Assembly: GCA_902500055.1 (NCBI GenBank)
Contig: GCA_902500055.1_4131.1
DNA from: Escherichia coli
GTDB lineage: Bacteria; Pseudomonadota; Gammaproteobacteria; Enterobacterales; Enterobacteriaceae
Length of the DNA: 64,000 nt
Strand: one strand, 5' to 3'
The position numbers and the translations under genes were made by a program. The first letter of the stretch is position 1. Each line of letters opens with the position of its first letter. The notes beneath the pieces are model-generated. The model saw only the letters and a program-made list of their open reading frames with translations. It ran no database searches and was not told the DNA's origin. This document shows positions 18,176-64,000 of this stretch, one piece after another.

Positions 18176-18209
18176 CTAAAACACATTTATTACATGGAGA
18201 TTTAATAAA

Positions 18210-19255: not shown

Positions 19256-19266
19256 TTTTCATATAG

Positions 19267-19440: not shown

Positions 19441-19920
19441 TTTAAAAGATTTAATACTTGACGGGATTTGTTGAGGACATTTTCATCCCCCCGCAGGGGA
19501 ATGAAGACAATAAAAAAGAGACAATGAAGTCTCTATTTCTTGACGCTGATGGTTTCAGCATTTATTGTATTGCGAATTTCTTAAAAATATATTAAGAACG
19601 AAAGCGGGTTGCTCTGTTTCTCTCTATCGCAGTCATGTGCAACGGTCGTCAGTCTTAATCATCCTGACACTCACCTGAAAGTCTATACAATCAAACTTCA
19701 GGCTGTTTATTAAAATCACTTAATAAACTCCCTTAGCAAATCTGGTAAGGTGCGATCCTTATATGTCTATCTAGGAACTCTCTGTATGCTTATCGGAGTT
19801 CTTTATTGAGCCGCATTGCCGTGAGGGGTTCAAACTATGCCCACATCTAACGGGTTTCTTTTGCTCATCGCACTGTTGAACTGCTCATCTGCCATCTACA
19901 TTTTCGATAGGATCAGGTTC
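19441..19920. ncRNA. candidate large structured non-coding RNA in an ORF-free region (strand and ends undetermined)
   Basis: ~840 bp (19256-20092) without any ORF of 60 aa or more in six frames; the core is visibly more GC-rich than flanks and contains multiple hairpins (TCATCCCC/GGGGAATGA, AGAGAC/GTCTCT, TAAGG/CCTTA, AGGAACTC/GAGTTCTT, GCTGA/TCAGC). No canonical tRNA T-loop found. Confidence 0.25.
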
Positions 19921-20092
19921 TAATTTATATGCATTTCTGCATTCAACAGGATTGTCATTACTACAACAAACATTATAGCACTATTTTTAAAATCTTCCCA
20001 CTAATATCATAAAAAAATAAAAAAGTACTTAGTACATTTTTGAAGTATAAAAAAACCAAGTAACAAAACATTACTTGGTTCATAAAAACTAT

Positions 20093-20644
20093 TCAATAAT
20101 TTATATTTTTTGATATGAAGTCTTTTATAATTTTAATGTGGTCATCTGAATACTTTATTCTAAGTAAAGTAATATTATTATCATAACAATACTTATTCTT
20201 AATTTCATCATTTCGTTGTTGTTCAGCTAAACCTTCTTCTCCACCGAAGTATTCTATTGGTTTGAAGTGTTGGATACCATCATATTCTATTAGTAGATTA
20301 AGTTCAGGAATATAAAAATCAAATGGTAAATGATTGATGTTTTTACAACTATCAAATTTCTTTTCCATTTCAAACATTATATCACACGTTTTTAAAAAAT
20401 TCTGAATTTCAATAACAGGTTTTGATTTTAGTTCTTGGTCTGAACAAACTGGACACCCTTGTTTTGCAGAAATGTGTTTATTAGGAACTACTGTGAAGTC
20501 ACCGTGAATGTTACACGTAACAGTTATTGGATGGTGTGCATTGACATATATTGTTTTATTGTATGTGTAAATACTACCATGAATATTCATTGATTTATCT
20601 ATGAATTGTTGTTGTGTAATTTTAGCTATTCTTGTGTACCTCAC
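20093..20644 (-). CDS. zinc-ribbon + PD-(D/E)xK (Vsr/DUF559-like) nuclease, homing-endonuclease-like
   Basis: N-terminus HHPITVTCNIHGDFTVVPNKHISAKQGCPVCS is the same ribbon type as in 8568-9722; C-terminus LPFDFYIPELNLLIEYDGIQHF...RDxxK fits the DUF559/Vsr-like PD-(D/E)xK core. Confidence 0.5.
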   Translation of the reverse strand: MRYTRIAKITQQQFIDKSMNIHGSIYTYNKTIYVNAHHPITVTCNIHGDFTVVPNKHISAKQGCPVCSDQELKSKPVIEIQNFLKTCDIMFEMEKKFDSCKNINHLPFDFYIPELNLLIEYDGIQHFKPIEYFGGEEGLAEQQRNDEIKNKYCYDNNITLLRIKYSDDHIKIIKDFISKNINY

Positions 20645-20689
20645 AAAACTTTTTAATATACATTATTTACAGAAACAGGACAAAACGCT

Positions 20690-21181
20690 ATGAAAAAGAG
20701 ATTGAAAAATCCCAATGAAGCAGCAGCTTACAGAAAAGAACTACTAAAAAAACAAAATGGTATTGACCCCATTATAGGAATAAAAATAACTAAACCAGTA
20801 CTTGACCACTATCATGGTGGAAATCAACATTGTAGACAGGTTCTTCAAAATGAGGTGAATGGATGGGAAGGAAGGGTCGCAAATTCATTTAAACGCTGTC
20901 TGGGCCATTTAACTGATAAACCTCTTCATGAAGTACTAAGAAATCTGGCAGATTATCTTGAAAAGAACAATAACATTCCACCTGAAGAGCAAGTCATACA
21001 TCACACAGCACTAACTGTGGATGTTAATAAGTTTAAAAGGCTTCCAGCAACACAGCAAAACGCGATTCTGGAAGGGTTAGGAGTTGTCCCTGGTAGTAAC
21101 ACTACTGCTCGTGTAAAGCAAGCTAGAAAGCTGATTAAGGACGGTAAATTAAATATGGTTGATATAAAAAAAGGGAGCTAA
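20690..21181 (+). CDS. endonuclease VII-like / His-Me finger nuclease (uncertain)
   Basis: PVLDHYHGGNQHCRQVLQNEVNGWEGRV loosely resembles T4 endonuclease VII HLDHDHELNGPKAGKVRGLLCNLCNAAEG; 163 aa versus 157 aa. Confidence 0.35.
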   Translation: MKKRLKNPNEAAAYRKELLKKQNGIDPIIGIKITKPVLDHYHGGNQHCRQVLQNEVNGWEGRVANSFKRCLGHLTDKPLHEVLRNLADYLEKNNNIPPEEQVIHHTALTVDVNKFKRLPATQQNAILEGLGVVPGSNTTARVKQARKLIKDGKLNMVDIKKGS

Positions 21182-21192
21182 GGCTCCCTTTA
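21174..21192. terminator. bidirectional terminator hairpin (GGGAGC...GCTCCC) between convergent genes
   Basis: Stem-loop with flanking A-run and T-run, between 20690-21181 (+) and 21200-23347 (-). Confidence 0.5.
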
Positions 21193-21199
21193 TCTTTAA

Positions 21200-23347
21200 T
21201 TAGAAAACATCGTCAAGGGTTGCATATTCAACAGTACTGAAACCGTCCTCTTTAACAACTTTGAGGATTTTTTCAGTCTTAGATAGTAACTCTTCTCTGT
21301 GGGAAATAGCATAAACGTTCTTACCACGTACAGCAGCCATATCTTGGAAGATAGACCACACACGTAGAACACCACTTGAGTCAAGACCTTGGTCAATCAT
21401 CTCATCAATGATAAGAATATTAATACTTTGGTATAATGACTCATATGTATCACGGAAAGCACAAGATAATGCGATGTTTACCCTTGTACGCTCACCTCTA
21501 CTAAGCTGTTTATAGTCAAAGTACTGTCCACTCTTCTCAATTTCAACACTCAAATCATTCAAAAACACAACATTATGCTCAGAACCGCACATATCGATAT
21601 AGTACTGAAGTCGTGTATTCAAATATGAGATATTTTGCTCAATAATACGTTTACGGACATAAGAATCCTTGTTTAAAAGTAATTTAACCAAGAAATCTTG
21701 GTGATTTGACATTTTATCAAGATTATTATAGTCGCTATAATCGATTGGTACTAAAGAATCAGTCTTCAGGGTATTAATTTGGCTAATAAATGTGTTAGTA
21801 GTCTTCAATTCACGATCTAATTGCTGTGATAATGAATTTACAGTCATTTCTAACTCTTTAACTTCATATTTGTTTAATGTATCTGGAACTTCCATTAGTT
21901 CATATGAGTTAAGTTCATCATATGATGACATAAGTTCATTTGCATAGATGTTTATTTGTTCTTCTTCACTCTTTCTGACCAATTCTTGAAGCTTATGTTC
22001 ATGCATTTGTGCTTCTGAAAGTGTATTATAATATGTCACAGGCTTAGGTGGCATATCAAAAATCTCAATACTATCAATTTCTTGAAGTAATGTTTCAATT
22101 TCCGAAGAAGAACTATCAATTTTAGCTTGAAGATCATTAATAGTACTTTGGATTTTGTCTTTAATTGAAGAAGTATGTTCGTTATGTTCTAATTCAGACA
22201 TACAAAGTGGACATTTGCTGTTTTCAACTGTTGATAATTTGTCAATTTCAGCATTAATTGAACATTCATATCCTTTTAAAGCTATTTTTAGTGAGTTTAG
22301 TTTTTGTTCTTTGAAACGTTTTTGGTTATTATTCTCTTTTAGAATACCCTCTAACTGTTTCCATATCTCCAACTCATTATGATTTTCCAATTCTGCACTA
22401 ATATCAATAGTTTTTAGCTTATCAATGCTTAGATTTAATGCTCTTTTAGATCTTTCAAGTTCACGGTCATATGCATCAAATTTTAAAGCCAACTCTTGTA
22501 CACGGCGTTCGATTTCACCACGCTTTGCGTTATGAATAAGAGCTTTCTCTTTTATGTCAGCAGCTTCATAGAGGTCATTAAAGTCTAAAGTTTTATATAT
22601 ATTCAACTCTTCATTTAACTTAGATACTCTATTATTTTTATCAATTTCAAACTGGTTTGCCTGTTCTTGTAGTGCCTCAATACTTTTTTGAATACGTTCA
22701 TTACTTGCAGCTACAGTTTCATTTTTGAACTTTTCTTGTTCGGCTAAACGTTTAGTATCCTTATACATCTCCTTTAGCATTTCAGCTTTTTCCGTCAACT
22801 GTGTTATTCCAAGAAGTTCTTCTATCATATCACGTTGTTTTTGTGTGGATAAAGCTAAGAAAGGTTCAACGTTAGCATTCAGTACTACAATATGTTCAAA
22901 TAATAATTGAGATATACCAAGAATTTCATTCAAATCTTCTTGTGTGTCTTTCTTTTCTCCCCTTGATTCATCTTCAATTTTATTATCTTTCCCTAAAGTA
23001 ACAAAATTGAAATACGTGGGACTTCTCCCACGTTCAACCAAATATTGTACACCATCTTTTTCAAACTCTACAACTACTTCACAATTTTTTCCATTAGTTT
23101 TATTGACTAGGTTAGGAATTTTAATATCGTTACCAATACTTTTACCAAATAATCCAAAAACTAATCCTTGAATAATAGCACTTTTCCCTACACCATTTCG
23201 ACGTCCGGTACTGTCACCACCTTCAATAACTGCATCATTATTTTGACCCAGTACTAATGAAATGTCGGAACCATTTAAATCAATTGATTGTGGTGCATTA
23301 CCAAATGAAAAGAAGTTCCTCATAGATATACGTGTAATGTTTAGCAT
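21200..23347 (-). CDS. 46: recombination endonuclease subunit gp46 (SbcC/Rad50-like ATPase)
   Basis: P-loop GRRNGVGKSAIIQGLVFGLFGK at N-terminus, long coiled-coil middle, C-terminus LSRGERTRVNIALSCAFRD...ILIIDE matching T4 gp46 FSEGEKARIDIALLFTWRD...LILDE. Confidence 0.85.
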   Translation of the reverse strand: MLNITRISMRNFFSFGNAPQSIDLNGSDISLVLGQNNDAVIEGGDSTGRRNGVGKSAIIQGLVFGLFGKSIGNDIKIPNLVNKTNGKNCEVVVEFEKDGVQYLVERGRSPTYFNFVTLGKDNKIEDESRGEKKDTQEDLNEILGISQLLFEHIVVLNANVEPFLALSTQKQRDMIEELLGITQLTEKAEMLKEMYKDTKRLAEQEKFKNETVAASNERIQKSIEALQEQANQFEIDKNNRVSKLNEELNIYKTLDFNDLYEAADIKEKALIHNAKRGEIERRVQELALKFDAYDRELERSKRALNLSIDKLKTIDISAELENHNELEIWKQLEGILKENNNQKRFKEQKLNSLKIALKGYECSINAEIDKLSTVENSKCPLCMSELEHNEHTSSIKDKIQSTINDLQAKIDSSSSEIETLLQEIDSIEIFDMPPKPVTYYNTLSEAQMHEHKLQELVRKSEEEQINIYANELMSSYDELNSYELMEVPDTLNKYEVKELEMTVNSLSQQLDRELKTTNTFISQINTLKTDSLVPIDYSDYNNLDKMSNHQDFLVKLLLNKDSYVRKRIIEQNISYLNTRLQYYIDMCGSEHNVVFLNDLSVEIEKSGQYFDYKQLSRGERTRVNIALSCAFRDTYESLYQSINILIIDEMIDQGLDSSGVLRVWSIFQDMAAVRGKNVYAISHREELLSKTEKILKVVKEDGFSTVEYATLDDVF

Positions 23348-48883: not shown

Positions 48884-48993
48884 GTATTCTCCTATGTGAT
48901 TCACGTCACTCTAATTAATAAACATTATATCACATTCTTACGGTTTGTCTACAAGGTAAATAAAGATATACCCGATTTATTTTGGAGACAAAC

Positions 48994-50487
48994 ATGACAT
49001 ATAGAATGTGGAAAAAAGGTAGAACCAATGATTACAAGTTCATTGATTCTGCCATTGCTGAACAATACAACATTGGTGGAGTTGACATGTGGCTTTATGC
49101 ATATGTCGGTCCAAAACAAGTTGCTGACAACACTGACTTATCCTATGGAGGTGATTATACATCTTCAGGATCAGTTGTGTCAAGTATTGGCGATTTAATT
49201 TTTGGTGACACACCAAACAGAAACTACAACCTTGAAGCTATCACACTTAGTTGTGTCTATCAAGTTCAAGAAGCAACTCCAGACTTGAAAATCCCAGGAT
49301 TGTTCTTTAATTTCAACACTATGGACATCACAATCCATTATAATACAATGATGCAGCGTTTAGGTAGAAAAATCATGCCAGGGGATGTGATAGAACTACC
49401 AAATTTACGTGATTTTGATGTATTGGGTAAAGATACAGGTCTAAACCGCTTCTATGTCGTCCAAGATGCATTTCGTACATCTGAGGGATACTCGGTTACG
49501 TGGCAACATCACATTTATAAACTTAGAGTTAAACCGCTAACCGACTCACCTGAGTACTCCGATTTACTCGGTAACAATAATTATCCTGATAATCCAGATG
49601 ACCCTAATAATGGTAATGGAAATACCGATGATGGTTCGTCGGAAAACAGTAACTATGGCAATGAAATGGATATCATGAACCGTATCATCATGCAAGCTGA
49701 TGATGAAGTACCCTATATTCATTATACAAATGAACATTTGTATGATGATCGACCTGATACAGTAGATTTATCAAAATATATGCTTAACGGTTATGATTTT
49801 CCAGAAGAACCTGCCGATGGAATGTATTTTTTGAAAAAAACATACCCAGTACTCAAAGAGTTTGTTAATGATACATGGATTTCTGTGGAAGTCAAGCGTG
49901 GAACCATCTTTCCCAGAAAACCAATGGATGGTGACTTCTTCTTTAAAGAAAATGACGCAGATGTGACAGGTTATACGTTGTATCAATATGATAAAAGTGC
50001 TAAAAAATGGTTAAATTGTGATGTAGAATATACTACCAGTGATGTTCCACCAGAAGATGTGGAAGATTTTTGTATTTTTTATAAAGAACCACACATTTAT
50101 CAGTATAATGATGACAAGTGGGGGGAACCAAAGGTAACTTATGTCAATGAACCATTCACGTCCAATTGTGTATATGGTAATATTGATTCGCAACAAGATT
50201 ATCGTCCTAAAATTCCACCAGCACGAGGTACAGTCCCTGAAGGAAATATGTTCCCAACTGATGCAGTAGATGGTGACTATTTCTATCGCACCGATTATAC
50301 TCCAGTTACGTTATGGGAATTCAATGCAACTAAGAATTCATGGGTTATTTTTGATTATGGTGGAAGAAAACCGTGGGAAGGTGCAGACTTAGCACTTACA
50401 CAGTTTGTAAATAGTGATAACAAAGTTCCATTACATGACGCAGTTAAACCTAATACTGTTTATCGCATACATAAGGACACAGAATGA
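48994..50487 (+). CDS. hypothetical virion structural protein
   Basis: Track ORF starts at TTG 48982; ATG 48994 with GGAG upstream preferred. 498 aa; lies in the structural cluster; contains Asn/Asp/Gly-rich linker (NNYPDNPDDPNNGNGNTDDGSSENSNYG). Confidence 0.4.
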   Translation: MTYRMWKKGRTNDYKFIDSAIAEQYNIGGVDMWLYAYVGPKQVADNTDLSYGGDYTSSGSVVSSIGDLIFGDTPNRNYNLEAITLSCVYQVQEATPDLKIPGLFFNFNTMDITIHYNTMMQRLGRKIMPGDVIELPNLRDFDVLGKDTGLNRFYVVQDAFRTSEGYSVTWQHHIYKLRVKPLTDSPEYSDLLGNNNYPDNPDDPNNGNGNTDDGSSENSNYGNEMDIMNRIIMQADDEVPYIHYTNEHLYDDRPDTVDLSKYMLNGYDFPEEPADGMYFLKKTYPVLKEFVNDTWISVEVKRGTIFPRKPMDGDFFFKENDADVTGYTLYQYDKSAKKWLNCDVEYTTSDVPPEDVEDFCIFYKEPHIYQYNDDKWGEPKVTYVNEPFTSNCVYGNIDSQQDYRPKIPPARGTVPEGNMFPTDAVDGDYFYRTDYTPVTLWEFNATKNSWVIFDYGGRKPWEGADLALTQFVNSDNKVPLHDAVKPNTVYRIHKDTE

Positions 50488-51840: not shown

Positions 51841-52305
51841 ATGAATGAAGCGGTTGGTGCTATATTTTTATCAAAAAGTACTGGACATATGATGTTAAAC
51901 TTGCGTTCTGAAAGAAGTACCTATTCTAACAACTGGGCATTTGTTGGTGGAAAGCTTGAACATAACGAAACACCACTACAAGGTCTGATGAGAGAAATTA
52001 AAGAAGAGTTGGGCAACTCAATACCTAACATTATTGATATTATACCGTTTGATGTATTTTGTACAAAAAATGGTAAATTTAAATATTATTCATTTGTTAT
52101 TGTAGTTGAGAATGAATTTGTACCAACTTTAAATCATGAAAGCTCTGGTTATGCTTGGGTTAGAATTGGTTCTTGGCCTAAACCATTACACCCTGGTGCT
52201 AAAAATACTTTACTTAACACAAACTTAATGAAAGATTTTTACTCACTATGGGAAAGTATACGTGAAGGTACACAGTTTGTCAACAGTTTACCATATAGAT
52301 ATTAA
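51841..52305 (+). CDS. Nudix hydrolase
   Basis: Nudix box GGKLEHNETPLQGLMREIKEELG (Gx5Ex7REUxEExGU). Confidence 0.8.
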   Translation: MNEAVGAIFLSKSTGHMMLNLRSERSTYSNNWAFVGGKLEHNETPLQGLMREIKEELGNSIPNIIDIIPFDVFCTKNGKFKYYSFVIVVENEFVPTLNHESSGYAWVRIGSWPKPLHPGAKNTLLNTNLMKDFYSLWESIREGTQFVNSLPYRY

Positions 52306-52313: not shown

Positions 52314-52336
52314 GGAGCCGTGTGGCTCCTTTTTTT
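52314..52336. terminator. bidirectional terminator (GGAGCC-gtgt-GGCTCC + T7)
   Basis: Perfect 6-bp stem followed by TTTTTTT, between convergent Nudix (+) and 52335-53435 (-) genes. Confidence 0.65.
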
Positions 52337-53435
52337 ATACTCCAATAATCGGAATACCTGTAATATTTAACAACACGGATGCTTGTAGTTTAACGGATTC
52401 ACCAGCAGTTAGATTACTAATGCTACCATCAACTCGAAAACCTAAATTTTTATTTGAGTTTAGAGAATTGATAACCCAATTTTCATAATCAGCTTTAGAT
52501 GTTCCATTAGGATTTGGGATAGATGGATCTACACCATTAATAACAATATTTACGTCCCAGTTTGGGCGACTACTGGTAATAACATCTTTTATGGATTCTA
52601 ATTGTGTAATCCTACGTGGGTCTGGCATTTGACTTGCCCCCACCGAACCAGGAACAAAAGTTCCTTGATTATCTACATAAAATTGCCCTTTTATAAAAAA
52701 GGTTTTTGAATTGTATGGAAGAGAAACTATCTCACCAGAAGAATCATTTACTTCTCTAATCATAATTTTTAATTCATAGAAATAGTTGCTACCAAATTCA
52801 AAGACACCAGTACCATTAGTTAATGTTGTCCAGTTATTTGTATCTACTTGTGAAGTACCACCTAAGTTAAAATACGCAATTGGTTTAGTACTGTTACTTT
52901 GTGTGAACTCTATATATTTTTTACCATTATCATAGTTAATATCTAATAATGATGAATACTCTTTGTTTTCTGGTCTAGATGTTTGAATTTCACGCCATTC
53001 TTTGTTTTTCATTAACACACGAAGAGAATCACCGTTACTAGTTAATACCATACGACCCATAACACTATTTTCACCATCAGGTACTGTGTTAAAAACAGTA
53101 ATCATAGGGATAGCCGCCCATTCAGCTTCACTTACCATATCAGCAGGTTGTCTAGCATTATCAACTAATGATATCAATAACTCACCAGTACTACCAGTGT
53201 TTCTATACCAAAGTTGACCATTGACGTTGCCACGTGGTGCAGATGCTGAACTGAAATTTTCAACTAAATGTAAAAAGTTTTCGTTCCATGCTTGACCGTA
53301 ACTTACTTTATTTCTACCAACTAAATTTAACGGAACTGGGTTACTTCCGGGCTGGTTTGGTCCTAAAATAACATTATTTGGAATGGTAGCATAAACACTA
53401 CCATTACTTCTATAAATTGTATAATTAACACTCAT
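52335..53435 (-). CDS. hypothetical protein, probably tail/fibre-associated
   Basis: 366 aa, Asn/Gly/Ser/Thr-rich; last gene of an inverted three-gene block; RBS GGGGA. Confidence 0.35.
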   Translation of the reverse strand: MSVNYTIYRSNGSVYATIPNNVILGPNQPGSNPVPLNLVGRNKVSYGQAWNENFLHLVENFSSASAPRGNVNGQLWYRNTGSTGELLISLVDNARQPADMVSEAEWAAIPMITVFNTVPDGENSVMGRMVLTSNGDSLRVLMKNKEWREIQTSRPENKEYSSLLDINYDNGKKYIEFTQSNSTKPIAYFNLGGTSQVDTNNWTTLTNGTGVFEFGSNYFYELKIMIREVNDSSGEIVSLPYNSKTFFIKGQFYVDNQGTFVPGSVGASQMPDPRRITQLESIKDVITSSRPNWDVNIVINGVDPSIPNPNGTSKADYENWVINSLNSNKNLGFRVDGSISNLTAGESVKLQASVLLNITGIPIIGV

Positions 53436-53447
53436 TATATGTCCCCA

Positions 53448-54056
53448 TTATTGTAATTGTACACGAACTGTGTATTTAATTTGTAAGACACGGTTTGCAC
53501 TTTTCTCAACTGGGTGAAAAATGATATGGGTTAAAGGAATACCACTATCGCCATCCGTGTATAATCCCAATTCATCAAACACATAAGTTCCATCCATGCT
53601 TGTCCCTGAGCTTACACCTTGGTCGGATGGTTCACCTAACCCTAGAGTACAAATACATACAATATCAGTATAGGACTGTCCTGGTATATGTACAGTTGTA
53701 ATATTATTGTATTGTGAATCAATACCTGCCGTAATTCGTGGGTTGATTTTTTTCAAATATGTTTGTGAATACAAACCACCAAATGATGTAACACGTGGTT
53801 TTTTATAAGTAACACGACCAGTACTTAAAACTACTGTACCACCATTACCAAAACGCATCTCGCTAATAGAACCAATAGGAATACCAGTACTGTCTTGATT
53901 ATATGCTAACGCATTAGCAATGGCAGTACTCATATTTTCAGGGTGAATAGCGTTAGATTTATCTAAAACGATTTTTTGATTTGATGGATCAGTAACGTCA
54001 GTAATTAGGACATGACCTTTAACAAATAGTTTTGGTTGTTCTGTTTCTAATTTCAT
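53448..54056 (-). CDS. hypothetical protein, probably tail/fibre-associated
   Basis: 202-aa ORF with RBS AAGGA; middle gene of the inverted block. Confidence 0.35.
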   Translation of the reverse strand: MKLETEQPKLFVKGHVLITDVTDPSNQKIVLDKSNAIHPENMSTAIANALAYNQDSTGIPIGSISEMRFGNGGTVVLSTGRVTYKKPRVTSFGGLYSQTYLKKINPRITAGIDSQYNNITTVHIPGQSYTDIVCICTLGLGEPSDQGVSSGTSMDGTYVFDELGLYTDGDSGIPLTHIIFHPVEKSANRVLQIKYTVRVQLQ

Positions 54057-54065
54057 TTCTAATCC

Positions 54066-54563
54066 TTAGTAGTTAATTAAAATTTGTTCTAACTTCCCAG
54101 CTAAACTTTTTTGGACATCTGATGGATACTTACTAATATAATCACGGTCTATACCAACTTTAAGGTAAGTAAAATTACCAGTTACTGTTTCAGCAAATGT
54201 TCCGGTAGTTCCTTGTTGTCTAATTAAATCTCCACCATTTGGATTTAAAATAACCATATCAGTAAATTCAAGATAATAATTACAACTTTCAGTGAATTTA
54301 ATTGGAAACCAATCATCATCAGTAGGATTACTAGCTAATGTAGCTAACACATAAATTCTACCAATAAAATTACGTAGTGTAAATGAAATCGTATGTAAAC
54401 CTGTAGTACAGCCATAGTAGCCACCACTTGCTAGTGGTAACGTTTGTTCATTCCAGTGATAATCCAAGTTAGCTGGATACCAGCTATCAGATTCAGGAAA
54501 ATCTTGCCATGAACCATCTTTTGTTTTTCTTCTGAAGAGAAAGTCTTTTGATCTTAATGCCAT
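54066..54563 (-). CDS. hypothetical protein
   Basis: 165-aa ORF with RBS AAGGG; first gene of the inverted block. Confidence 0.35.
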   Translation of the reverse strand: MALRSKDFLFRRKTKDGSWQDFPESDSWYPANLDYHWNEQTLPLASGGYYGCTTGLHTISFTLRNFIGRIYVLATLASNPTDDDWFPIKFTESCNYYLEFTDMVILNPNGGDLIRQQGTTGTFAETVTGNFTYLKVGIDRDYISKYPSDVQKSLAGKLEQILINY

Positions 54564-54673
54564 TGTTTAAGCCCTTTTAGTAGTGAACTTTCATTTATTT
54601 ATTAATGATAACGAAATGTATTTTGTACTGATAAATATTGGTATATGACATTAACTCATACAAGGGAAATATT

Positions 54674-55801
54674 ATGACAATTTCATTTAACAATGGGTCC
54701 AGTGGTTCATGTAATAACTCCGGCATCAAAAGTCTAGTTATTAATGGTGCTGGGCATTTAATTGTAACCTATGCAGATAACACAATTCAAGATTTAGGTC
54801 TTGTTGTAGGACAGAATGGCGAGAATGGTAAAAACTTTTATCCTAATGAGATTGGTTTTGAAATTCCTTCCGAACAATTTAAAGTTGGTGAACCACTTGG
54901 GTGGTGCTACTTAAGCTTGGCTAACAACACCAGTACTCTATACTTTAAATCAAACGATGCACAAGATCCGACAAGTACATGGATTAGTGTTGAGTTTGGT
55001 AAAGGTGATACTGGTGAAGCGGGTAAGCCGTTCCACATTGATAGTGCTGGGACTACTTTCCCAACAACTGGTCTTTTTAATAACTATACATTTTATAATA
55101 CTCAAGATGGTAAGCTTTATTTCTATCAAAGTGTAACTGCCACTTGGAGTGATGGTATCCCTTTCCGTGGTGAACAAGGTCCGCGTGGTCGTTTCCATAT
55201 TGATAGTAGTGGTGATCAATTTCCAAGTATTGAAAATCTTCCAGTTGATTATTGTTTTTATAACAACACTGATGGAAAACTATATTATGTTGATGAAGTA
55301 ACTACAACTACCCCTCCTTCAAAAGAGTGGAGTGATGGTATTCTATTCCGTGGTAAAGAAGGTCAGCAAGGTATTCAAGGTATACAAGGCGAACCAGGTG
55401 CACCAGGTAAAGATACAATTTCTATTAGAAATACAATAGATAGCTCATGGACTAACGCACTATTAGTTATTGGTACGTGTCCTGCTGGATATGTAGTTTC
55501 TAATATTGATGTAAACGTTATACAACCTTATTCTCTTCCTGTAACTGATATGTTTGTACGTTTTGGTGGTGAAGCACAAGAAGATATTGGTGGGACTGTA
55601 ATTGCACCAACTTCCTACTTTGATATCAATCGTCAGATGCGTTTTATTGTTAATGAAACTAATCATGCAGCATCCGATGTTGATGAAATTATTTCATGTG
55701 TATTCAACGATTCTGTTAACAACAGTCCTTATGGAAAAATGGAAATTATTTGTACTCTTTCATGGCAAGCTCCTATCCAACCGATTCAAGATAATATTTA
55801 A
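54674..55801 (+). CDS. collagen-like repeat tail fibre protein
   Basis: Three copies of a ~45-aa motif (G-x-x-G-x-P-F-H-I-D-S-x-G-x-x-F-P ... Y-x-F-Y-N-x-x-D-G-K-L-Y-(F/Y)) each preceded by Gly-X-Y collagen-like tracts (GEQGPRGR; GKEGQQGIQGIQGEPGAPGKD). Start set to ATG 54674 (track start 54638 is TTG). Confidence 0.55.
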   Translation: MTISFNNGSSGSCNNSGIKSLVINGAGHLIVTYADNTIQDLGLVVGQNGENGKNFYPNEIGFEIPSEQFKVGEPLGWCYLSLANNTSTLYFKSNDAQDPTSTWISVEFGKGDTGEAGKPFHIDSAGTTFPTTGLFNNYTFYNTQDGKLYFYQSVTATWSDGIPFRGEQGPRGRFHIDSSGDQFPSIENLPVDYCFYNNTDGKLYYVDEVTTTTPPSKEWSDGILFRGKEGQQGIQGIQGEPGAPGKDTISIRNTIDSSWTNALLVIGTCPAGYVVSNIDVNVIQPYSLPVTDMFVRFGGEAQEDIGGTVIAPTSYFDINRQMRFIVNETNHAASDVDEIISCVFNDSVNNSPYGKMEIICTLSWQAPIQPIQDNI

Positions 55802-55815
55802 GGGAGGATGTCATA

Positions 55816-57957
55816 ATGGCAGTATTTTCTAATTTTGAAGGAACTATGCAGCCCAAATTCATATTGGGGAAAAAAGGTGCTTCAATAAATTTTATCAATG
55901 ATTCAGTTTCTATAAAAGATTATCTAGGAGAACAGTTCCTACCACTGAAGGTAGGAACTTCATCTGATCCTAATTCAGCAGTTAACGTAAAATATCTTGA
56001 AGATAACCCTAATGCATTATTTGGTGTTGTACCACCTACCGATGATATAGGAAAGAACAATAATACGTATTTTCAAATTGATGAAGATGGTATTGTTGAT
56101 ATTTTTGCAAAAAGCAATGGTACATGGGTAAAATCATTATACATTAATAAAAAAGTTCTATCCAGTAAAAATGGTGGAGATTTCATCGGACTTATTACTG
56201 GAGGTACAGTTCAACAGGCACAGTTTTATATAACACCAGAAGAATTTGGTGCTAAAGGTGATGGCGAAACTGATGACACTGCTGCTGTAAATTTATGTGC
56301 TGCTTATGCTAAAGAAAATAAAATCCAAATTCAGGCTGGTGGTAATTACCGTATCAAAACTGCAATATATCTGGAAGATGTAACTTGGTTTGGGGGAACT
56401 ATTACTGGTAACGGTGGTACTATGGTATCCGTTATTAATTCCCAAATACAATTTGCAACACTTACTGGATGTTATTTAAAATTCTTCGGCGGCGATGGTA
56501 AGTTTTATTTTAATAAATTTATAAACATCACAAGTACTGCTGCATTTTTAATGCAAGGTATGACACAACCAGGTACAATAGATTTTTGCTTTAATGAAAT
56601 GACCCAATGTAAGTATGGCGTTCTTCAACAAGGTACTGGTGAGAAAATGAAGGTTGGTAGATATTCATATAACCACATACATGATATATATGGTGATGCA
56701 ATTGAACTAAACGTAATTAACTCACACTATCCTGATGGTTTTGTTATTGAAGGGAACATAATTGAAAACGTTGATGGTTCTAACGCTCCAATCCCACTTT
56801 CAAACTGGGGTATTGGTATTGGAGTTGCTGGTTCTGGACCTTATGGTTTAGATGCACCAGACACACAATATGTAAGAAACTTTGTTATTAAAAATAACAG
56901 ACTATATAATGTTAGACAATGTATCCACGTTGAATTAGGCATGGACTTTAAAATACTTAATAATGAAGTTTATCCATCATCTTTAGTTTCTGTCGGTACT
57001 GGATTAACCACTGCTGGTGTTATAACTTATGGTTCTAAAGAATTCATTATTGATGGGTTGACTGGTCATTTGCTTAATGATCCTTCTATCACAAATAGAA
57101 TGGTTTCAATAAACTGGGGTGTAACTTCTGGTCGTTTTGCTGGACCACCTAGAAACTTTAAAATTTCTAATCTCTATATTCCAGAGTCTTCTATACTTGT
57201 TTATACTTCCGGTTCTGATAATTGGTTAAATAATACAGAATTGAGCAATATCACCTGTTCTAAAATTCTTTGGCGTGGTTTGCCATCATCATCTAAATTT
57301 AGTGATATTAGAACTAAAGAATTAGATGTAATTGGTCAACACCTCTCTACAGAAGGCGAAGGTGGTGGTATATATACTCGCTCTAAATATACTTATACTA
57401 ATTGGACTAACTGTGTTGTTCAAGATGATTGTAATGTTTCAAAATATAGTTTTTCTAAAATGTATGTAGACAGAATAGACCAATCATCTAATAACTTTAA
57501 AGTTACAACTGCAATCGATGGTACAGGTCACCGTGGCCCAGTACTGATACCTGTAGTTGAACAATATTATATTCCATATGATACTTTTCCAGGGGGACGC
57601 TATTTCTCTGAAGGCACGATTATTCATAAACAATCGGGTGGAAAATATATTGTAACTGTTGGTGGTTCTTTTTTCGGAAAATATGACACAATTAGACAAA
57701 CGGTAGCAGGACAAACATACATAGAAGCATTGGGTGTGTCATGGGGTGAAAACCAATATGCAAAAGCTGCTGGTACTGAGATTATTATATCTGGTGCTGG
57801 TGAAAATGGTGGTGATTTGAGAACGTATATAACTCGTGCAGTGTATGTTGTAAACAACGTATATAGAATTGATATTGCAGATCCTATCATAACAGCAACT
57901 GCCGCTGGTGCAGCATTAAAAGCCGCCCAACCCGTAACTTACATAACCCTACCATAA
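55816..57957 (+). CDS. tailspike with pectate-lyase-fold (right-handed beta-helix) polysaccharide depolymerase domain
   Basis: Signature ITPEEFGAKGDGETDDTAAVNLCAAYA typical of the pectate lyase superfamily N-terminal cap in phage depolymerases; N-terminal ~55 aa shared with the next gene; RBS GGGAGG. Confidence 0.7.
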   Translation: MAVFSNFEGTMQPKFILGKKGASINFINDSVSIKDYLGEQFLPLKVGTSSDPNSAVNVKYLEDNPNALFGVVPPTDDIGKNNNTYFQIDEDGIVDIFAKSNGTWVKSLYINKKVLSSKNGGDFIGLITGGTVQQAQFYITPEEFGAKGDGETDDTAAVNLCAAYAKENKIQIQAGGNYRIKTAIYLEDVTWFGGTITGNGGTMVSVINSQIQFATLTGCYLKFFGGDGKFYFNKFINITSTAAFLMQGMTQPGTIDFCFNEMTQCKYGVLQQGTGEKMKVGRYSYNHIHDIYGDAIELNVINSHYPDGFVIEGNIIENVDGSNAPIPLSNWGIGIGVAGSGPYGLDAPDTQYVRNFVIKNNRLYNVRQCIHVELGMDFKILNNEVYPSSLVSVGTGLTTAGVITYGSKEFIIDGLTGHLLNDPSITNRMVSINWGVTSGRFAGPPRNFKISNLYIPESSILVYTSGSDNWLNNTELSNITCSKILWRGLPSSSKFSDIRTKELDVIGQHLSTEGEGGGIYTRSKYTYTNWTNCVVQDDCNVSKYSFSKMYVDRIDQSSNNFKVTTAIDGTGHRGPVLIPVVEQYYIPYDTFPGGRYFSEGTIIHKQSGGKYIVTVGGSFFGKYDTIRQTVAGQTYIEALGVSWGENQYAKAAGTEIIISGAGENGGDLRTYITRAVYVVNNVYRIDIADPIITATAAGAALKAAQPVTYITLP

Positions 57958-57973
57958 AGGAGATTATATTAAA

Positions 57974-58870
57974 ATGGCAGTTTTTTCTAATTTAGAAGGA
58001 ACCATGAAGAAGTCCTTCATTCTTGGGAAGAATGGTGCACAGATTACCACAAATGGTAGTGTTGTGCAAATTCAAAACTACTCAGGAACACAACTTCTTC
58101 CAATTTCAGCAGGTGAACCAACTGCAAACACACACTTGGTTACATTGGGATATTTAAACGCACACAGTGGTGGTGGTAGTTCTGGTATCTTACGTGGAAC
58201 AACAGCACCATCCGATTCTATTGGTCTAGATGGTGACGTTTACTTTTTGGTTGATAGTACTAATGTTCTTCAAATTTATATTAAAGATCTTGGTATTTGG
58301 AAACCATTTAAAGGTAGCTCACCGGGAACTGATAGCTCATATGTAACTACTGAAATAGTTCCTGTTTCTGCATTTACATTAGTACCAGATACTACTGATC
58401 ATTATACTTACACACTACCAGAATCAGTTCATGGTAGAGGTTCTGATATTATGATTCAACTACAAGGTGACCCAGGTAATGTTGCATTGGAATCAGTATT
58501 CCAAACCACAGTAACAGTTAGTGGTATTGGGGATATAACAATTGATGTGATTGGTCAAATCACAGATTATGCAAGTGTTAAAGTAAACATTATAGGAGCA
58601 ACAACAATGACAGTACCTTATAGTAAATTAGTAAACCAAGCCGATTGGGTTTCTAGTGCTGGTGATTTCACAATCACTATTCCAGCATCCGAACACAATC
58701 AAACCCCAGATAATTTGTATATTTCAATTTATGCAAATAAAACACCTGGAAGTGTTGCGTCATCTCCATTCGAGTTGGTAGTGACTGATACACAAATTAG
58801 TAGTACTGGTGATGTAATCTTCACTTCTGATATTTCTTTCAGTGGTAAGATTGTCATCTCCGGTAAGTAA
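57974..58870 (+). CDS. tail fibre / receptor-binding protein paralog sharing the tailspike N-terminal anchor
   Basis: N-terminus MAVFSNLEGTMKKSFILGKNGAQI... parallels MAVFSNFEGTMQPKFILGKKGASI... of the preceding gene; C-terminal region diverges. Confidence 0.55.
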   Translation: MAVFSNLEGTMKKSFILGKNGAQITTNGSVVQIQNYSGTQLLPISAGEPTANTHLVTLGYLNAHSGGGSSGILRGTTAPSDSIGLDGDVYFLVDSTNVLQIYIKDLGIWKPFKGSSPGTDSSYVTTEIVPVSAFTLVPDTTDHYTYTLPESVHGRGSDIMIQLQGDPGNVALESVFQTTVTVSGIGDITIDVIGQITDYASVKVNIIGATTMTVPYSKLVNQADWVSSAGDFTITIPASEHNQTPDNLYISIYANKTPGSVASSPFELVVTDTQISSTGDVIFTSDISFSGKIVISGK

Positions 58871-58878
58871 CAAATTAA

Positions 58879-58909
58879 CCAGGCTTGTTCTAAATAAGTC
58901 TGGTTTTTT
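58879..58909 (+). terminator. rho-independent terminator (CCAGGCTT...AAGTCTGG + T6)
   Basis: 8-bp stem with one G-U pair, followed by TTTTTT, after the 57974-58870 gene. Confidence 0.5.
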
Positions 58910-59007
58910 ATTATATTTGCTTTTGTCAAATAATGTATTAATTGTTGGATAACAGCATAATAAAACTAAATATATACATATTAACAAGGTTATAATGGAG
59001 GGTATAA

Positions 59008-62000
59008 ATGTACTCAATAAAAACTGACTTAGATATTACTGGTGCTGGTACGGTTGGTAAGGATCTTTTAGTCAAAGGAAATGCTGTTTTCAATAATAAC
59101 CTAACTGTAAATGGTACTGTAACTTTTGCAAATGCAACTTTTACTGCCATTGAATCATCAACTGCCAATATTACATCTACTTTAGATGTAGGTGGCAAAG
59201 CAACACTTTCTGGTGGTCTTGGTGTTGAGGGTAATACTACAATCGGTAGTGCAGTGGTCGGGTCTGATACAGCAACAATTAATTCAAACGCTACCTTTAA
59301 CGGTACTGTATCAGTTGGTTCTGATTTTACACAAACTGCTGGTACAACCACTCTACAAGCAACTAAAGTTAAAAACTTAGAAGTTGCTGAAACAACAGCA
59401 TTTAAAGGTAATATTACTGCTGATGTTGGTACTACTGCTGCATTTGATAAAATTACTGCTAATACCGCAGAAATTACTAATGTAAGTACAACCGATATTA
59501 GTAGTACTGGTACTGCTACATTTAAAGATGTGACAATTAGTGGTACACTTGGTGGTGAGTTTAATCTATCTGACTTAAATGCAGTAACATTGAACGTTAC
59601 TGGTGCATCTAACCAACAAGGTGCAGTAACTTTCGGTGCTAACGTAACTGGTATTAACAGTACTGCTACTTTTAAAGACATTCGTATTGGTTCTAACTCT
59701 GAATCTCAAACCTTCAGATTAAGCTTCCCTTACACTGCTCCTGGTAAACGCCCAACTGTTATTCTACAAAACGAAATTCAGTCCGAGTTAATGTCACCTG
59801 CAAACTTAACAGTTTTGACATCTGCTTCTTTTGGTAATGCGTCATTATCTTCTTATGGTATTACTGGTAATGGTCTAAACAAATTAGATTATCTAACAGT
59901 TTCTGGTAACAATACACAATCACCAGACACCCCACTATTAGAAGTTCAAAAAGGAAAAACCAAAGTTGCCGATTTTGAAGTTACAGGAACCGCAACTATA
60001 CCAAATATTGAAAGTACTGGAACTGCTAATTTTAATAATATTAATATTTCTGGTGTTCTTGGTGGAACATTCCAACTAGATGATATTAATGCAGTAACAT
60101 TGAACGTTACTGGGGCCACTTCGTTAGTTGGTGGTGTTACTCTTGGTTCTAATATTACTGGTTATAATAGTACTGCTACCTTTAAAGCTATTAGCTTAGG
60201 TCAAAATAGTCAAGATGCAGCAGTGAAACTAGGTTTTGGATATACTGCACCCGGTCAACGCCCAACAGTTATTCTACCTAATGAAGTTCAATCAGAAGTA
60301 GTTTCTCCTTCTACATTGAACGTTCTTAAAACTGCAACTTTTGGTAATGCGTCATTATCGTCTTATGGCATTACTGGTAATGGCCTAAACAAATTAGATT
60401 ATCTAACAGTTTCTGGTAACGAAACACAAGCTCCAGATACACCACTATTAGAAGTTCAAAAAGGAAAAACCAAAGTTGCTGACTTTGAAGTCACCGGAAC
60501 TGCAACTATACCAAATATTGAAAGTACTGGAACTGCTAATTTTAATAATATTAATATTTCTGGTGTTCTTGGTGGAACATTCCAATTAGACGATATTAAT
60601 GCAGCATCTTTGAACGTTACTGGTGCAACTTCATTAGTTGGTGGTGTTACTCTTGGTTCTAATATTACTGGTTATAACAGTACTGCATCATTTAAAGCTA
60701 TCAGCTTAGGCCAAAGTAGTCAAGATTCTGCTGTAAAACTTGGATTTGGATATACTGCACCAAGTCAACGTCCAACCGTGATTTTACCTAACGAAGTTCA
60801 ATCAGAATTAGTTTCTCCTTCAACACTGAACGTTCTAAAAACGGCAACTTTTGGTAATGCTGCACTTTCTACGTATGGTATTACTGGTAATGGCCTAAAC
60901 AAATTAGATTACCTAACCATTACAGGTAACGCAACACAAGACCCTAGTACACCATTCCTACAAGTTGGTGGTAAAGCAATTCTTAATGATGTTGAATTTA
61001 CTGGAACAGTAACTGGGTTAACTGTTGATGTAAGTGGTCAGGATCTAACACCAAACTCAGTTGTTGCTGCGACAAATATTAAAGGTGCAACCCTTGAAAG
61101 TACTGGTAACACTACTGTGGGTGCTAAACTAACTGTTACTGGTGATATTGCTGGTACAACTGCAACTCTTTCTGGTGCATTATCTGCTGGTTCAATAAGT
61201 TCTGGTGTTATTACTGGTACAACTTCAGTTTCAGCACCAACAATTAGTGCATCTACTGAAGTAACTGCTCCTACTATCACTGCTAGTGGGACTTTAAGTG
61301 GTCAAACTATTAACGGAACTAATATTAGTGCAACAACTCTTACTGCACCAACTATTAGTGGTAATACAAACTTTACAGAAAATGTTGATATTACTGGCAA
61401 CCTAACCGTTACTGGCACAGTAACGCCAGGTACGATTGATTTGAGCACAACTGATGTAAGTGCGAAATCTATTACTACTACCGCTGGTGCAAATATTGGT
61501 GGTGATCTTGTGGTTCAAGGTTCTTTTGATTTATCATCAGCAGACATTAGCGTTAAATCACTAACTGCTTCTGGTATTGTTAAAAGTAATGATCTTGTTA
61601 ATGCTAACGTACTTCCAGTACTTAATAGTACTACTGCAACAATTAATACTGTTAATGCAACTGAACTTGCGGTAACAGGTCCATCCAATCTAGCATCTGT
61701 TCGTACAAGTGCTGATGTTGTAGTCGGAACAACTTTAAATGTAAGTGGTGAAACAACAACTGCATCTCTAGTTACTCCATCTATTTCCAATGCAACTGGT
61801 GTTACAATTGGTAATAATACTTCTATCACTGGTGACTTAACTGTTAGTGGTGCTGTGATTCCTGGATCTATCGACCTAGCATCAACTGATGTTAACGCTA
61901 AATCAATCACAACAACTGCTGGTGCAACAATTGGTGGAAACTTAACCGTTAACGGTACAGTAGACCTAACTGCTGCTGATGTAACAGTTAAATCTCTAAC

Positions 62001-64000
62001 CAGTACTGGTGCAATCATTAGTAATGAATCAACTATTAGTAGTGTTCTACCTAAACTACAAAGTACTGATGCGACAATTGCAACTCTAGGTTCTACTACT
62101 GCGAATATTACTAATTTGAATGTAACTGGTGCAACTTCTGTTGCTGATGTAACATCTTCTGGTAAAGTTACAGCAGTTTCTATTGAAGTTCCAACCATTG
62201 GTAATACTGCGGGTGTATCTATTGCTAATAATACATCTATTACTGGTGACCTAACAGTTTCTGGTACAGTGACACCAGGTGCTATTGATTTAACAACAAC
62301 TGATGTTAATGCTAAATCAATCACAACAACTGCTGGTGCGACTATTGGTGGTGATCTTGTTGTTTCTGGTACAGTTGATTTAAGTGGTTCTGATGTATCT
62401 GTTAAATCTCTAACAAGTACTGGTATTATTACAGTTAGTAGTGCAGAAGGTATTAACGTTCTACCTAAAGTTCAAAGTACTGAAGTTACAGTGTCTGCTC
62501 TAAATGCAACAAATGCAGTAGTTTCTGGTGATGTTTCAGCAGCAACAGCTTCAATCTCAGGTGCAGTTACTGGTGGTTCAGCAACGCTATCTGGTGCTGG
62601 AACTGCTCTAAATGTAACTAATAATGCAACTGTCGGCGGTACACTTACTGTTGGTTCTATTACTTCAGCGGCAGAAAATGTATCCATTACTAAAAATACC
62701 GCTGTCACTGGTAATTTAGCAGTATCTGGAACTCTAACTGCTGGTGTTATTGATTTGAGCACAACTGATGTGTCTGTGAAGACATTAACTTCTCTAGGTG
62801 ATGCAACCGTTCAAGGTAACTTAACTGTTGATGGTTCTATTGACCTAAGTTCTGCAAACATCGTCGGTGTAACACTAGAAAGTACTGGCTCTACCACTGT
62901 AGGTACTGATTTGATTCTAACTACAGGTAACATTACAGGTAGTCCATCTATTTCTGGTAACTTGGGTGTTACTGGAACCACAACGTTAACTGGTGCAACT
63001 ACAGTTTCAAACACATTGTCAACTGGTGGTAAACTAACAGTTAATACTGGTGGTATTCAAGTAGTTGATGGTGGTATTCAAGTTGATGCAGGAACTATTA
63101 CCGCACCAAGTGCTAATATTTCTGGTGACTCTACCCTTAATAGTGCAACTGTAACTACTACCCTTGGTGTTACTGGTGCAGCTAGTATGAATGGTGGCCT
63201 TACAGCATCTACTCTAGATGTAACTGGTGACAGTACTGTACAAAAACTAACTGTTAAGGGTGCATTTATTCCTGAAGGTGGTTTGGACCTATCCGGTGCT
63301 GATCTTAACGTGAATAGCGTAACTGCTGCAACCACATTAAGTGTTACTGGTGCAAGTACTCTAACTGGTGGTGTTTCCACTTCAACTGTTACTGCATCCG
63401 GTAAGGTAACCTCACAAGAACTAAGTACTGGTACATTGGCAGTAACCACAAATGGAACAGTTGGTGGTACTTTAGATGTAACTGGAAAGGCAACAGTCGG
63501 TTCACTAGATTCAGGTGCAATATCTGCAACTTCTGGTACATTTAGTACTACACTAGGTGTAACAGGTGCAGCAACATTTGGTAACAATGTTAATATTACT
63601 GGCACGTTAACCCCAGGTGCATTGGATTTATCTAGTACTGATGTAGATGCTAACAGTCTTTCTGTTGCAACAACCCTACATTCAAACGGCAATGCAACAA
63701 TCGGTGGTACACTAGGTGTAACTGGTGCAGCAACTGCTCCATCAATCGCTCTTAATGGTGAAGGAACTGCATTAGCAGTTACTAACAATGCAACAATTGG
63801 TGGTACACTAGGTGTAACTGGAAAGGCAACTGTCGGTTCACTAGATTCAGGTGCAATATCTGCCACATCTGGTACATTTAGTACTACACTGGATGTAACT
63901 GGAGCAGCAACATTTGGTAACAATGTTAACATTACTGGCACATTAACACCAGGTGCATTGGATTTAACTAGTACTGATGTAGTTGCTAACAGTCTTTCTG
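59008..64000 (+). CDS. giant repetitive Thr/Gly/Ser/Asn-rich fibre-like protein, partial (at least 1,660 aa, continues past window end)
   Basis: Manual codon-by-codon translation from ATG 59008 (RBS GGAGGG at 58997-59002) shows no stop up to 64000: MYSIKTDLDITGAGTVGKDLLVKGNAVFNNNLTVNGTVTFANATFTAIESS... Contains three tandem ~170-aa repeats and many copies of motifs such as TPG(A/T)IDL(S/T)TTDV(N/S)AKSITTTAGA(T/N)IGG. Missing from ORF track because no stop lies in the window. Confidence 0.75.
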   Translation, partial: MYSIKTDLDITGAGTVGKDLLVKGNAVFNNNLTVNGTVTFANATFTAIESSTANITSTLDVGGKATLSGGLGVEGNTTIGSAVVGSDTATINSNATFNGTVSVGSDFTQTAGTTTLQATKVKNLEVAETTAFKGNITADVGTTAAFDKITANTAEITNVSTTDISSTGTATFKDVTISGTLGGEFNLSDLNAVTLNVTGASNQQGAVTFGANVTGINSTATFKDIRIGSNSESQTFRLSFPYTAPGKRPTVILQNEIQSELMSPANLTVLTSASFGNASLSSYGITGNGLNKLDYLTVSGNNTQSPDTPLLEVQKGKTKVADFEVTGTATIPNIESTGTANFNNINISGVLGGTFQLDDINAVTLNVTGATSLVGGVTLGSNITGYNSTATFKAISLGQNSQDAAVKLGFGYTAPGQRPTVILPNEVQSEVVSPSTLNVLKTATFGNASLSSYGITGNGLNKLDYLTVSGNETQAPDTPLLEVQKGKTKVADFEVTGTATIPNIESTGTANFNNINISGVLGGTFQLDDINAASLNVTGATSLVGGVTLGSNITGYNSTASFKAISLGQSSQDSAVKLGFGYTAPSQRPTVILPNEVQSELVSPSTLNVLKTATFGNAALSTYGITGNGLNKLDYLTITGNATQDPSTPFLQVGGKAILNDVEFTGTVTGLTVDVSGQDLTPNSVVAATNIKGATLESTGNTTVGAKLTVTGDIAGTTATLSGALSAGSISSGVITGTTSVSAPTISASTEVTAPTITASGTLSGQTINGTNISATTLTAPTISGNTNFTENVDITGNLTVTGTVTPGTIDLSTTDVSAKSITTTAGANIGGDLVVQGSFDLSSADISVKSLTASGIVKSNDLVNANVLPVLNSTTATINTVNATELAVTGPSNLASVRTSADVVVGTTLNVSGETTTASLVTPSISNATGVTIGNNTSITGDLTVSGAVIPGSIDLASTDVNAKSITTTAGATIGGNLTVNGTVDLTAADVTVKSLTSTGAIISNESTISSVLPKLQSTDATIATLGSTTANITNLNVTGATSVADVTSSGKVTAVSIEVPTIGNTAGVSIANNTSITGDLTVSGTVTPGAIDLTTTDVNAKSITTTAGATIGGDLVVSGTVDLSGSDVSVKSLTSTGIITVSSAEGINVLPKVQSTEVTVSALNATNAVVSGDVSAATASISGAVTGGSATLSGAGTALNVTNNATVGGTLTVGSITSAAENVSITKNTAVTGNLAVSGTLTAGVIDLSTTDVSVKTLTSLGDATVQGNLTVDGSIDLSSANIVGVTLESTGSTTVGTDLILTTGNITGSPSISGNLGVTGTTTLTGATTVSNTLSTGGKLTVNTGGIQVVDGGIQVDAGTITAPSANISGDSTLNSATVTTTLGVTGAASMNGGLTASTLDVTGDSTVQKLTVKGAFIPEGGLDLSGADLNVNSVTAATTLSVTGASTLTGGVSTSTVTASGKVTSQELSTGTLAVTTNGTVGGTLDVTGKATVGSLDSGAISATSGTFSTTLGVTGAATFGNNVNITGTLTPGALDLSSTDVDANSLSVATTLHSNGNATIGGTLGVTGAATAPSIALNGEGTALAVTNNATIGGTLGVTGKATVGSLDSGAISATSGTFSTTLDVTGAATFGNNVNITGTLTPGALDLTSTDVVANSLS
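59581..60960 (+). repeat. direct tandem repeat, period 510 bp (170 codons), about 2.7 copies, inside the giant fibre gene
   Basis: Copies begin at 59581, 60091 and 60601 (each starts GCAG(T/C)A...TTGAACGTTACTGG); copies 2 and 3 are near-identical over long stretches. Confidence 0.8.
63481..64000 (+). repeat. direct repeat, period ~340 bp, within the giant fibre gene
   Basis: ACTGGAAAGGCAAC(A/T)GTCGGTTCACTAGATTCAGGTGCAATATCTGC...GGTACATTTAGTACTACACT... occurs at 63481 and again at 63821 with few substitutions. Confidence 0.7.

Follow-up and report, generated by a model that had tools for sequence, protein, structure and literature searches.

The principle of N-terminal anchors that are shared by phage proteins carrying different heads has already been described (PMC10253068, PMC9700779). 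Because modular receptor-binding proteins (RBPs) mounted on conserved anchors are well established, any further case represents an incremental gain. According to Xu et al. 2025 (cited in PMC13450770), the Phi92 protein gp150 degrades colanic acid by cleaving its β-1,4 glucose-fucose (Glc-Fuc) bond. Colanic acid is a stress-induced exopolysaccharide common to Escherichia coli and its relatives. The receptor-binding hardware of the Rak2-like jumbo coliphages is poorly mapped, and the published descriptions of phAPEC6, 121Q and their relatives leave its genes as "hypothetical", "structural" or "colanic acid biosynthesis". The present analysis deals with three consecutive genes, called g1, g2 and g3, located at positions 54674-58870 of a stretch of 64,000 nucleotides from an E. 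coli assembly (contig GCA_902500055.1_4131.1; hereafter the window). The second gene, g2, is predicted to encode a colanidase tailspike whose N-terminal region is homologous to that of the virion protein encoded by its neighbour g3.

The comparison of positions 54600-58900 with nucleotide databases matched 56 phage records, the first of them being Escherichia phage vB_Eco_slurp01 (99.5% identity over 100% of the query), with PBECO4, 121Q, phAPEC6, G17, SHEFM2K and others ranking next at 98%. From its sequence, the window is assigned to the E. coli branch (Asteriusvirus) of the Rak2-like phages, jumbo myophages with genomes of about 350 kb. The locus is already known and annotated, since records of its relatives name g1 as "tail protein", g2 as "colanic acid degradation protein" or "colanidase tailspike" and g3 as "virion structural protein", and g2 belongs to a known, structurally solved tailspike family. 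The initial annotation of the window had recognized three consecutive genes, which were verified on the + strand at the coordinates given. The genes, together with the N-terminal module of g2 and g3 (N-module) and its two sub-modules, Na and Nb, are the following:

54674-55801, + strand: g1, 375 aa, a conserved virion "tail protein".
55816-57957, + strand: g2, 713 aa, a predicted colanidase tailspike with a β-helix head like that of Phi92 gp150 fused to the local N-module.
55816-56007, + strand: Na of g2 (aa 1-64), a candidate virion-docking domain (Na hidden Markov model (HMM), E 1.3e-26).
56008-56145, + strand: Nb of g2 (aa 65-110), one copy of a widespread fibre repeat (Nb HMM, E 1.7e-16).
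57974-58870, + strand: g3, 298 aa, a conserved virion structural protein.
57974-58165, + strand: Na of g3 (aa 1-64), part of the N-module.
58166-58309, + strand: Nb of g3 (aa 65-112), part of the N-module.
58310-58867, + strand: C-terminal β-sandwich domains of g3.

Residues 96-712 of g2 align without large gaps with chain residues 11-623 of Phi92 gp150 (crystal structures PDB 6E0V/6E0W; phmmer E 1.8e-235), the identity being 57% (352/617). Because this identity is shared with a solved structure, g2 is predicted to fold as a right-handed parallel β-helix (pectate-lyase-like), and the pectate-lyase-fold tailspike previously proposed at 55816-57957 is upheld. The profile phrog_6117 also matches g2 (E 4.5e-264), covering aa 90-711 only, and the Pfam family Pect-lyase_RHGA_epim gives a sub-threshold match (23.9 bits, cut-off 27). 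Thus, g2 is a predicted enzyme, a putative colanidase tailspike of the Phi92 gp150-like family (PHROG 6117). Its core (aa 262-459) resembles the host protein WcaM (E 5e-26), with a score of 91 bits against an equivalog cut-off of 795 bits. This likeness is the origin of the label "colanic acid biosynthesis protein" that g2 bears in several records. The homologies point to a degradative tailspike and not to a biosynthesis protein, and the analysis corrects in this way a recurring mis-annotation.

Heads of the g2 type were found in 255 phage records belonging to many genera; among the carriers are Justusliebigvirus, small podophages and phAPEC8-like myophages, and the homologues are annotated as tailspikes in many phages. 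Since the PHROG profile starts only at residue 90 of g2, the head can be considered a widespread cassette that is carried on varying N-termini. In the cultured Asteriusvirus records listed, the g2-type anchor is always accompanied by the same colanidase head. By homology, the substrate of g2 would be colanic acid rather than a serotype-specific or K-type capsule. Therefore, the earlier suggestion of a capsulated or polysaccharide-coated host is retained with respect to the presence of a polysaccharide-degrading spike, but its probable target is not a serotype capsule. Regarding receptors, the related jumbo coliphage EJP2 has been reported to use lipopolysaccharide (LPS), and SHEFM2K possibly uses flagellar structures, as reported by a citing paper.

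The N-terminal regions of g2 and g3 are clearly related (BLASTP E 9e-20; tblastn 38.5% identity over 109 aa, E 1e-20). Identity along the alignment reaches 15/20 (75%) in residues 1-20, falls to 8/20 in the next 20 and ranges from 20 to 33% out to about residue 110, with a total of 43/115; a hand count gives about 47% over the first 60 residues. The initial annotation described the first ~55 residues of both proteins as nearly the same. The homology is real, but only the first 20 residues are close, and the likeness runs beyond residue 55. The residues M1, A2, F4, S5, N6, G9, T10, M11, G18, K19 and G21 are invariant in both paralogues. The likeness ends at about aa 110, the alignment with gp150 starts at aa 96, and the junction between anchor and head in g2 is located at about aa 96-110. 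At the DNA level, similarity between both genes is restricted to the first 65 nt (77%), indicating that the duplication is old; for the same reason, a recent gene conversion between g2 and g3 was ruled out.

Neither tblastn nor HMM searches revealed further copies of the N-module in the window besides those of g2 and g3. Two copies per genome are present in each Asteriusvirus record listed and one, that of the g3 orthologue, in every other Rak2-like genus. Among cultured phages, tblastn with the N-module of g2 (E ≤ 1e-3) reached Rak2-like jumbo phages only. Scans of the N-module against Pfam and NCBIfam gave no family match, and a word-indexed search with aa 1-125 of g2 gave just 2 matches from 7 candidates, too few to inform on the exchange of heads at this locus. 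A side observation concerns the anchor/head junction in phage JNE01, where a 1-nt insertion at about 5355-5365 of its locus (L008; window ~56170-56180) splits g2 into an open reading frame (ORF) of 141 aa, containing the N-module, and another one of 588 aa, containing the head. P0153, the product of 141 aa, occurs on 28 contigs, and the split may reflect a genuine feature of the lineage and not an error of sequencing.

A profile of the N-module with 114 positions was searched against 1.84 billion representative proteins, rendering 469 matches, and protein architectures were derived from the best 150. The results divide the module into two parts, Na (positions 1-64) and Nb (positions 65-112). 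Na is present in 22 of the best 150 matches (representative clusters), where its start is invariably at residue 1-6; internal or repeated copies do not occur. In half of these clusters (11/22), Na lacks an adjoining Nb and precedes a different body. For instance, the protein P0163 (780 aa) is composed of Na, a region (aa 162-715) that is 33% identical to the KP32 gp37 tail fibre, and a Peptidase_S74 chaperone at its end, and P0171 (705 aa) combines Na with Beta_helix. Five Na proteins of 1204-1366 aa show BNR/sialidase-like propeller signatures, with weak CBM5/12 matches in two of them.

P0163 and P0171, whose N-termini are 42-48% identical to the Na of g2, are encoded about 6 kb apart on the 120-kb contig SRR18476386_53 (L009, 1431-12118), right after nrdD/nrdG, a position that corresponds to the site of the RaK2 tail-fibre island. 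A 919-aa neighbour on this contig is 58% identical to a structural protein of phage CBB, so that the contig is attributed to an uncultured Rak2-like phage. Another protein of this contig, of 902 aa, sits between the two Na-bearing ones; its N-terminus marginally matches a 536-aa ORF of the window (6195-7805, - strand; 31% over 90 aa, E 8e-4), and this region of the window may be syntenic with the fibre island of SRR18476386_53.

Nb was found in 122 of the best 150 matches, with 5 copies as the median and 14 as the maximum. Pfam Collagen matches were obtained in 6 of the 11 Nb proteins scanned (some of them below the cut-off), and one carries an LPXTG anchor. The initial annotation had contemplated that the N-terminal similarity could turn out to be ubiquitous low-complexity sequence; this is not the case of Na, and it is partly the case of Nb, the second half of the shared stretch. 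The idea that the g1 repeat is the same as the Nb repeat was dropped, since the Nb HMM found no significant match in g1 and pairwise comparison gave z ~3 for one repeat only. Motifs such as "P..DGDYF....W" in the 501-aa virion structural protein encoded at 48982-50487 (phrog_11591) recall Nb by eye; the match of the Nb HMM to this protein is not significant (E 1.6).

The other two genes encode well-conserved proteins. The start of g1 (ATG at 54674, MTISF...) agrees with those of its homologues, and the protein is conserved over its full length, with 45-92% identity, in all Rak2-like genera. It consists of an N-terminal domain, short Gly-X-Y linkers, β-rich units and a C-terminal jelly-roll head that resembles trimeric cement proteins. 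Tandem repeats of ~55 aa are located at about aa 113-170 and 169-232 (z = 26). The Gly-X-Y runs comprise 3, 3, 3 and 7 triplets (16 in total, the longest being 7), and the Pfam Collagen family (PF01391) scores 16.3 bits, below its cut-off of 27.2. The former description of g1 as a collagen-like repeat fibre is thus appropriate for these short runs but not for the bulk of the protein, which is β-rich and ends in a jelly-roll.

A total of 73 homologues of g3 were found in metagenomes and in phages of Escherichia, Cronobacter, Erwinia, Yersinia and Salmonella; nearly all of them have 284-300 aa and an alignment that spans 100% of the query. Identity to distant orthologues is 89% in aa 1-22, 63% in aa 1-64, 60% in aa 65-112 and 39-46% in aa 113-298. 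In the AlphaFold 2 model of g3 (a monomer; pLDDT 80, with moderate confidence at aa 11-50 and 71-110), short strands at the N-terminus precede a disordered Gly-rich linker (aa 51-70) and a well-predicted β unit (aa 71-111), and compact β-sandwich domains come after the N-module. This architecture does not support the second fibre that had been proposed for g3. A search of structural neighbours with this model gave no match revealing the fold or the partner of the N-module, and the C-terminal β-sandwich domains gave weak, non-specific fold matches only. g3 is a conserved core virion protein and does not appear to be a fibre with a swappable head.

Mass spectrometry (MS) has detected the orthologues of both proteins in virions of CBB (CBB_228, orthologue of g1, with 44% coverage; CBB_227, orthologue of g3, with 32% coverage). 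In phAPEC6, the g1 orthologue gp253 (65.6% coverage) and the giant fibre gp256 were detected, and in RaK2 the g1 orthologue gp062 was not detected in the proteome. Since they are full-length conserved core virion proteins in Rak2-like genera that infect different hosts, g1 and g3 are not considered interchangeable RBPs. The earlier view of this locus as a set of interchangeable RBPs with a shared N-terminus survives in another form, namely the presence of Na before varied heads in uncultured phages, of which at least one is Rak2-like.

A shared anchor on g2 and g3 is plausible, and the following explanation of its origin is considered probable. The genes g1, g3 and giant fibre would form a conserved tail-appendage cluster of Rak2-like phages, to which the Asteriusvirus lineage would have added one gene. 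The 5' part of g3 (~110 residues) would have been duplicated long ago in the Asteriusvirus ancestor and fused, at about residue 96-110, to a horizontally acquired colanidase β-helix head, a cassette common among coliphages, and the resulting chimera, g2, would have been inserted just upstream of g3. Na and one Nb stalk unit could build a short trimeric plug that fixes g3 and, by mimicry, g2 to the same kind of virion site, the candidate partners being g1, the giant fibre or the baseplate periphery. Trimers of g2 borne on the virion would clear colanic acid, allowing the fibres and the baseplate to reach an outer-membrane or LPS receptor. g3 would serve as a conserved accessory or adaptor, and not as a receptor binder that can be swapped. 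This scheme offers a hypothesis for enzyme mounting in which the anchor is borrowed from a neighbouring core protein.

Several observations weigh against this explanation. Neither g2 nor g3 is in the MS list of the phAPEC6 virion, and both coding sequences (CDSs) are also absent from the record of this phage. In 121Q, the products 572 and 574 are labelled "structural protein" and 573 is not. Nb appears, from its distribution, to be a generic stalk or fibre repeat that is found in hundreds of collagen-like fibre proteins. No match to Na was found in the experimentally mapped RaK2 tail-fibre proteins gp525-534; consequently, the gp528 anchor (PMC10253068) appears to be a different domain from Na. 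Finally, RaK2 (ORF061w; L003, 9001-9348) and the rest of the Alcyoneusvirus records keep only a 115-aa N-module as the orthologue of g3. The retention of this ORF favours a module that can stand alone, but the RaK2 locus is devoid of the giant fibre as well as of the g3 C-terminal domains, so that the ORF could be a deletion remnant as well as an autonomous plug.

Among the alternatives, the one that survives best, although it is doubtful, is that g3 acts as an adaptor joining the giant fibre to the virion, and that g2 mounts beside or instead of g3 to give a branched fibre and not a separate baseplate spike. It agrees with the order g1 - g3 - giant fibre, which is kept among Rak2-like phages, and with the conservation of g3 over its full length across hosts, as would be expected of an adaptor. 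The joint loss of the C-terminal domains of g3 and the giant fibre in RaK2 (PMC5259590) points in the same direction, but this co-loss concerns a single lineage and may be due to one deletion, and the non-specific fold matches of the β-sandwich domains do not favour an adaptor either. With respect to the site, the fibres of phAPEC6 are located on the capsid and, along the sheath, at three rings, and therefore the "one baseplate site" of the initial annotation is an assumption.

It is unlikely, to a slightly greater degree, that g2 is a soluble enzyme freed at lysis or a "moron", whose N-module would only be an inherited trimerisation or folding nucleus. In the PHROG database, the category of the colanidase family is "moron, auxiliary metabolic gene and host takeover". 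Structural comparisons gave no support for docking. The lack of a structural label in 121Q and the phAPEC6 MS list also suit a soluble g2. No proteomic evidence for g2 was found in the literature on Sharanji, JP4 and fEgEco12 or in that of Hua et al. However, the absence of g2 and g3 in phAPEC6 is weak evidence because both CDSs are missing from its GenBank record (MK817115; L005, 9196-12268), which skips from gp253 to gp256 and leaves intact colanidase and g3 ORFs without a CDS feature. Moreover, the N-module of g3, to which that of g2 is paralogous, belongs to a protein with an orthologue (CBB_227) detected by MS in virions, many phages have homologous heads annotated as tailspikes, and the strict N-terminal placement together with the 89% conservation of residues 1-22 across genera exceed what trimerisation needs. 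The weakest alternative, that the N-terminal likeness reflects generic shaft repeats of trimeric fibres with no specific common docking site, is very improbable: it draws on the abundance of Nb, on its collagen matches and on the faint similarity of the g1 repeats, but Na is the most strongly conserved part, is never internal or repeated and is where the likeness of g2 and g3 peaks, the module is confined to Rak2-like jumbo phages in the tblastn search of cultured phages, and g1 has no significant match to the Nb HMM.

The origin of g2 from a g3-derived anchor and a colanidase head, which is the preferred explanation, could be extended to the whole lineage. Na (~64 residues, MAxFSNxxGTM...GKxG...) would be an undescribed lineage-wide plug of Rak2-like phages, one that could fix any trimeric head bearing it to a conserved socket of the virion. 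This proposal is more tentative and falls somewhat short of being probable. No description of the Na anchor of Rak2-like phages, or of its reuse with several heads, was found in the literature searched. If the proposal is correct, the plug would account for the uptake of depolymerases (colanidase, KP32gp37-like lyase, sialidase-like propellers) by these phages and would provide a defined handle for retargeting jumbo phages. As a portable N-terminal domain, Na is a candidate for phage engineering.

With respect to the surroundings, g1 and g2 are separated by 14 nt and g2 and g3 by 16 nt, and two further features follow g3:

58877-58915, + strand: terminator-like hairpin and T-run after g3, with a 13-pair stem followed by TTTTATTATA.
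59008-64000, + strand: 5' part of a giant repetitive tail fibre gene, cut by the end of the window (1841 aa in slurp01).

The 13-pair hairpin and its T-run occupy 58877-58905, and a "terminator" feature is annotated beneath the match in phage G17. The three genes look like one transcription unit or operon ending in this terminator, within the tail and baseplate module. The giant fibre gene, whose counterpart in a related record is the CDS 16409-21934 (L001; window 59008 onward), is named "long tail fiber proximal subunit" in 121Q and is homologous to GAP32_220 (E 7e-70). Long ORFs rich in V, T, A and P are present on the - strand of this region at 58938-63941 (for instance, 58938-59681, 61515-62324 and 63078-63941), which are most likely shadow ORFs of the repetitive coding sequence. 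Upstream of g1 there are three virion protein genes transcribed divergently (52335-54563, - strand), a NUDIX hydrolase gene and the gene of a tail completion protein of the T4 gp15 type. The NUDIX gene (51841-52305; Pfam E 2.6e-15) lies amid tail structural genes, between the gp15-like gene and those of the virion proteins, and has the same position in RaK2, GAP32 and CBB.

In comparison with known systems, g1 shares Gly-X-Y runs, β repeats and a C-terminal jelly-roll with the collagen-like fibres of phages and bacteria that have C1q/TNF-like or cement-like jelly-roll heads, but its collagen portion is minimal and stays under the Pfam threshold. Within the Rak2-like phages, the orthologues of g1 and g3 are found in the same order in GAP32 (GAP32_222/221), CBB (CBB_228/227), 121Q (gp574/572) and RaK2 (ORF062w/061w). 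Outside the E. coli lineage, there is no g2 between them, so that g2 is an insertion of this lineage only. In contrast to the full-length g3 of the window, the RaK2 orthologue is cut to its 115-aa N-module and, unlike g2 and g3, the mapped tail-fibre proteins of RaK2 are devoid of Na.

The closest relative of the g2 head is Phi92 gp150, with which it shares the head from end to end, the WcaM-like core and presumably the substrate. However, the first ~95-110 residues of g2 are unrelated to the profile of this family, being copied from the N-terminus of the neighbouring protein, and the Phi92 virion is that of a 148-kb Justusliebigvirus, whereas g2 sits in a 350-kb Rak2-like phage. With respect to multi-RBP systems, such as CBA120 TSP1-4, G7C, KP32 RBP1/RBP2, RaK2 gp526-534 and phiKp24, g2 and g3 likewise share an N-terminal module and differ in their C-terminal parts. 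They differ from these systems in that only one member of the pair is predicted to be enzymatic and in that docking is proposed here from sequence. In addition, neither the T4 gp10-like XD branching domain nor the TSP D1/D2 head domains of the CBA120/G7C type were detected. As in those systems, Na is followed by depolymerase-type heads of other kinds in one or more related phages.

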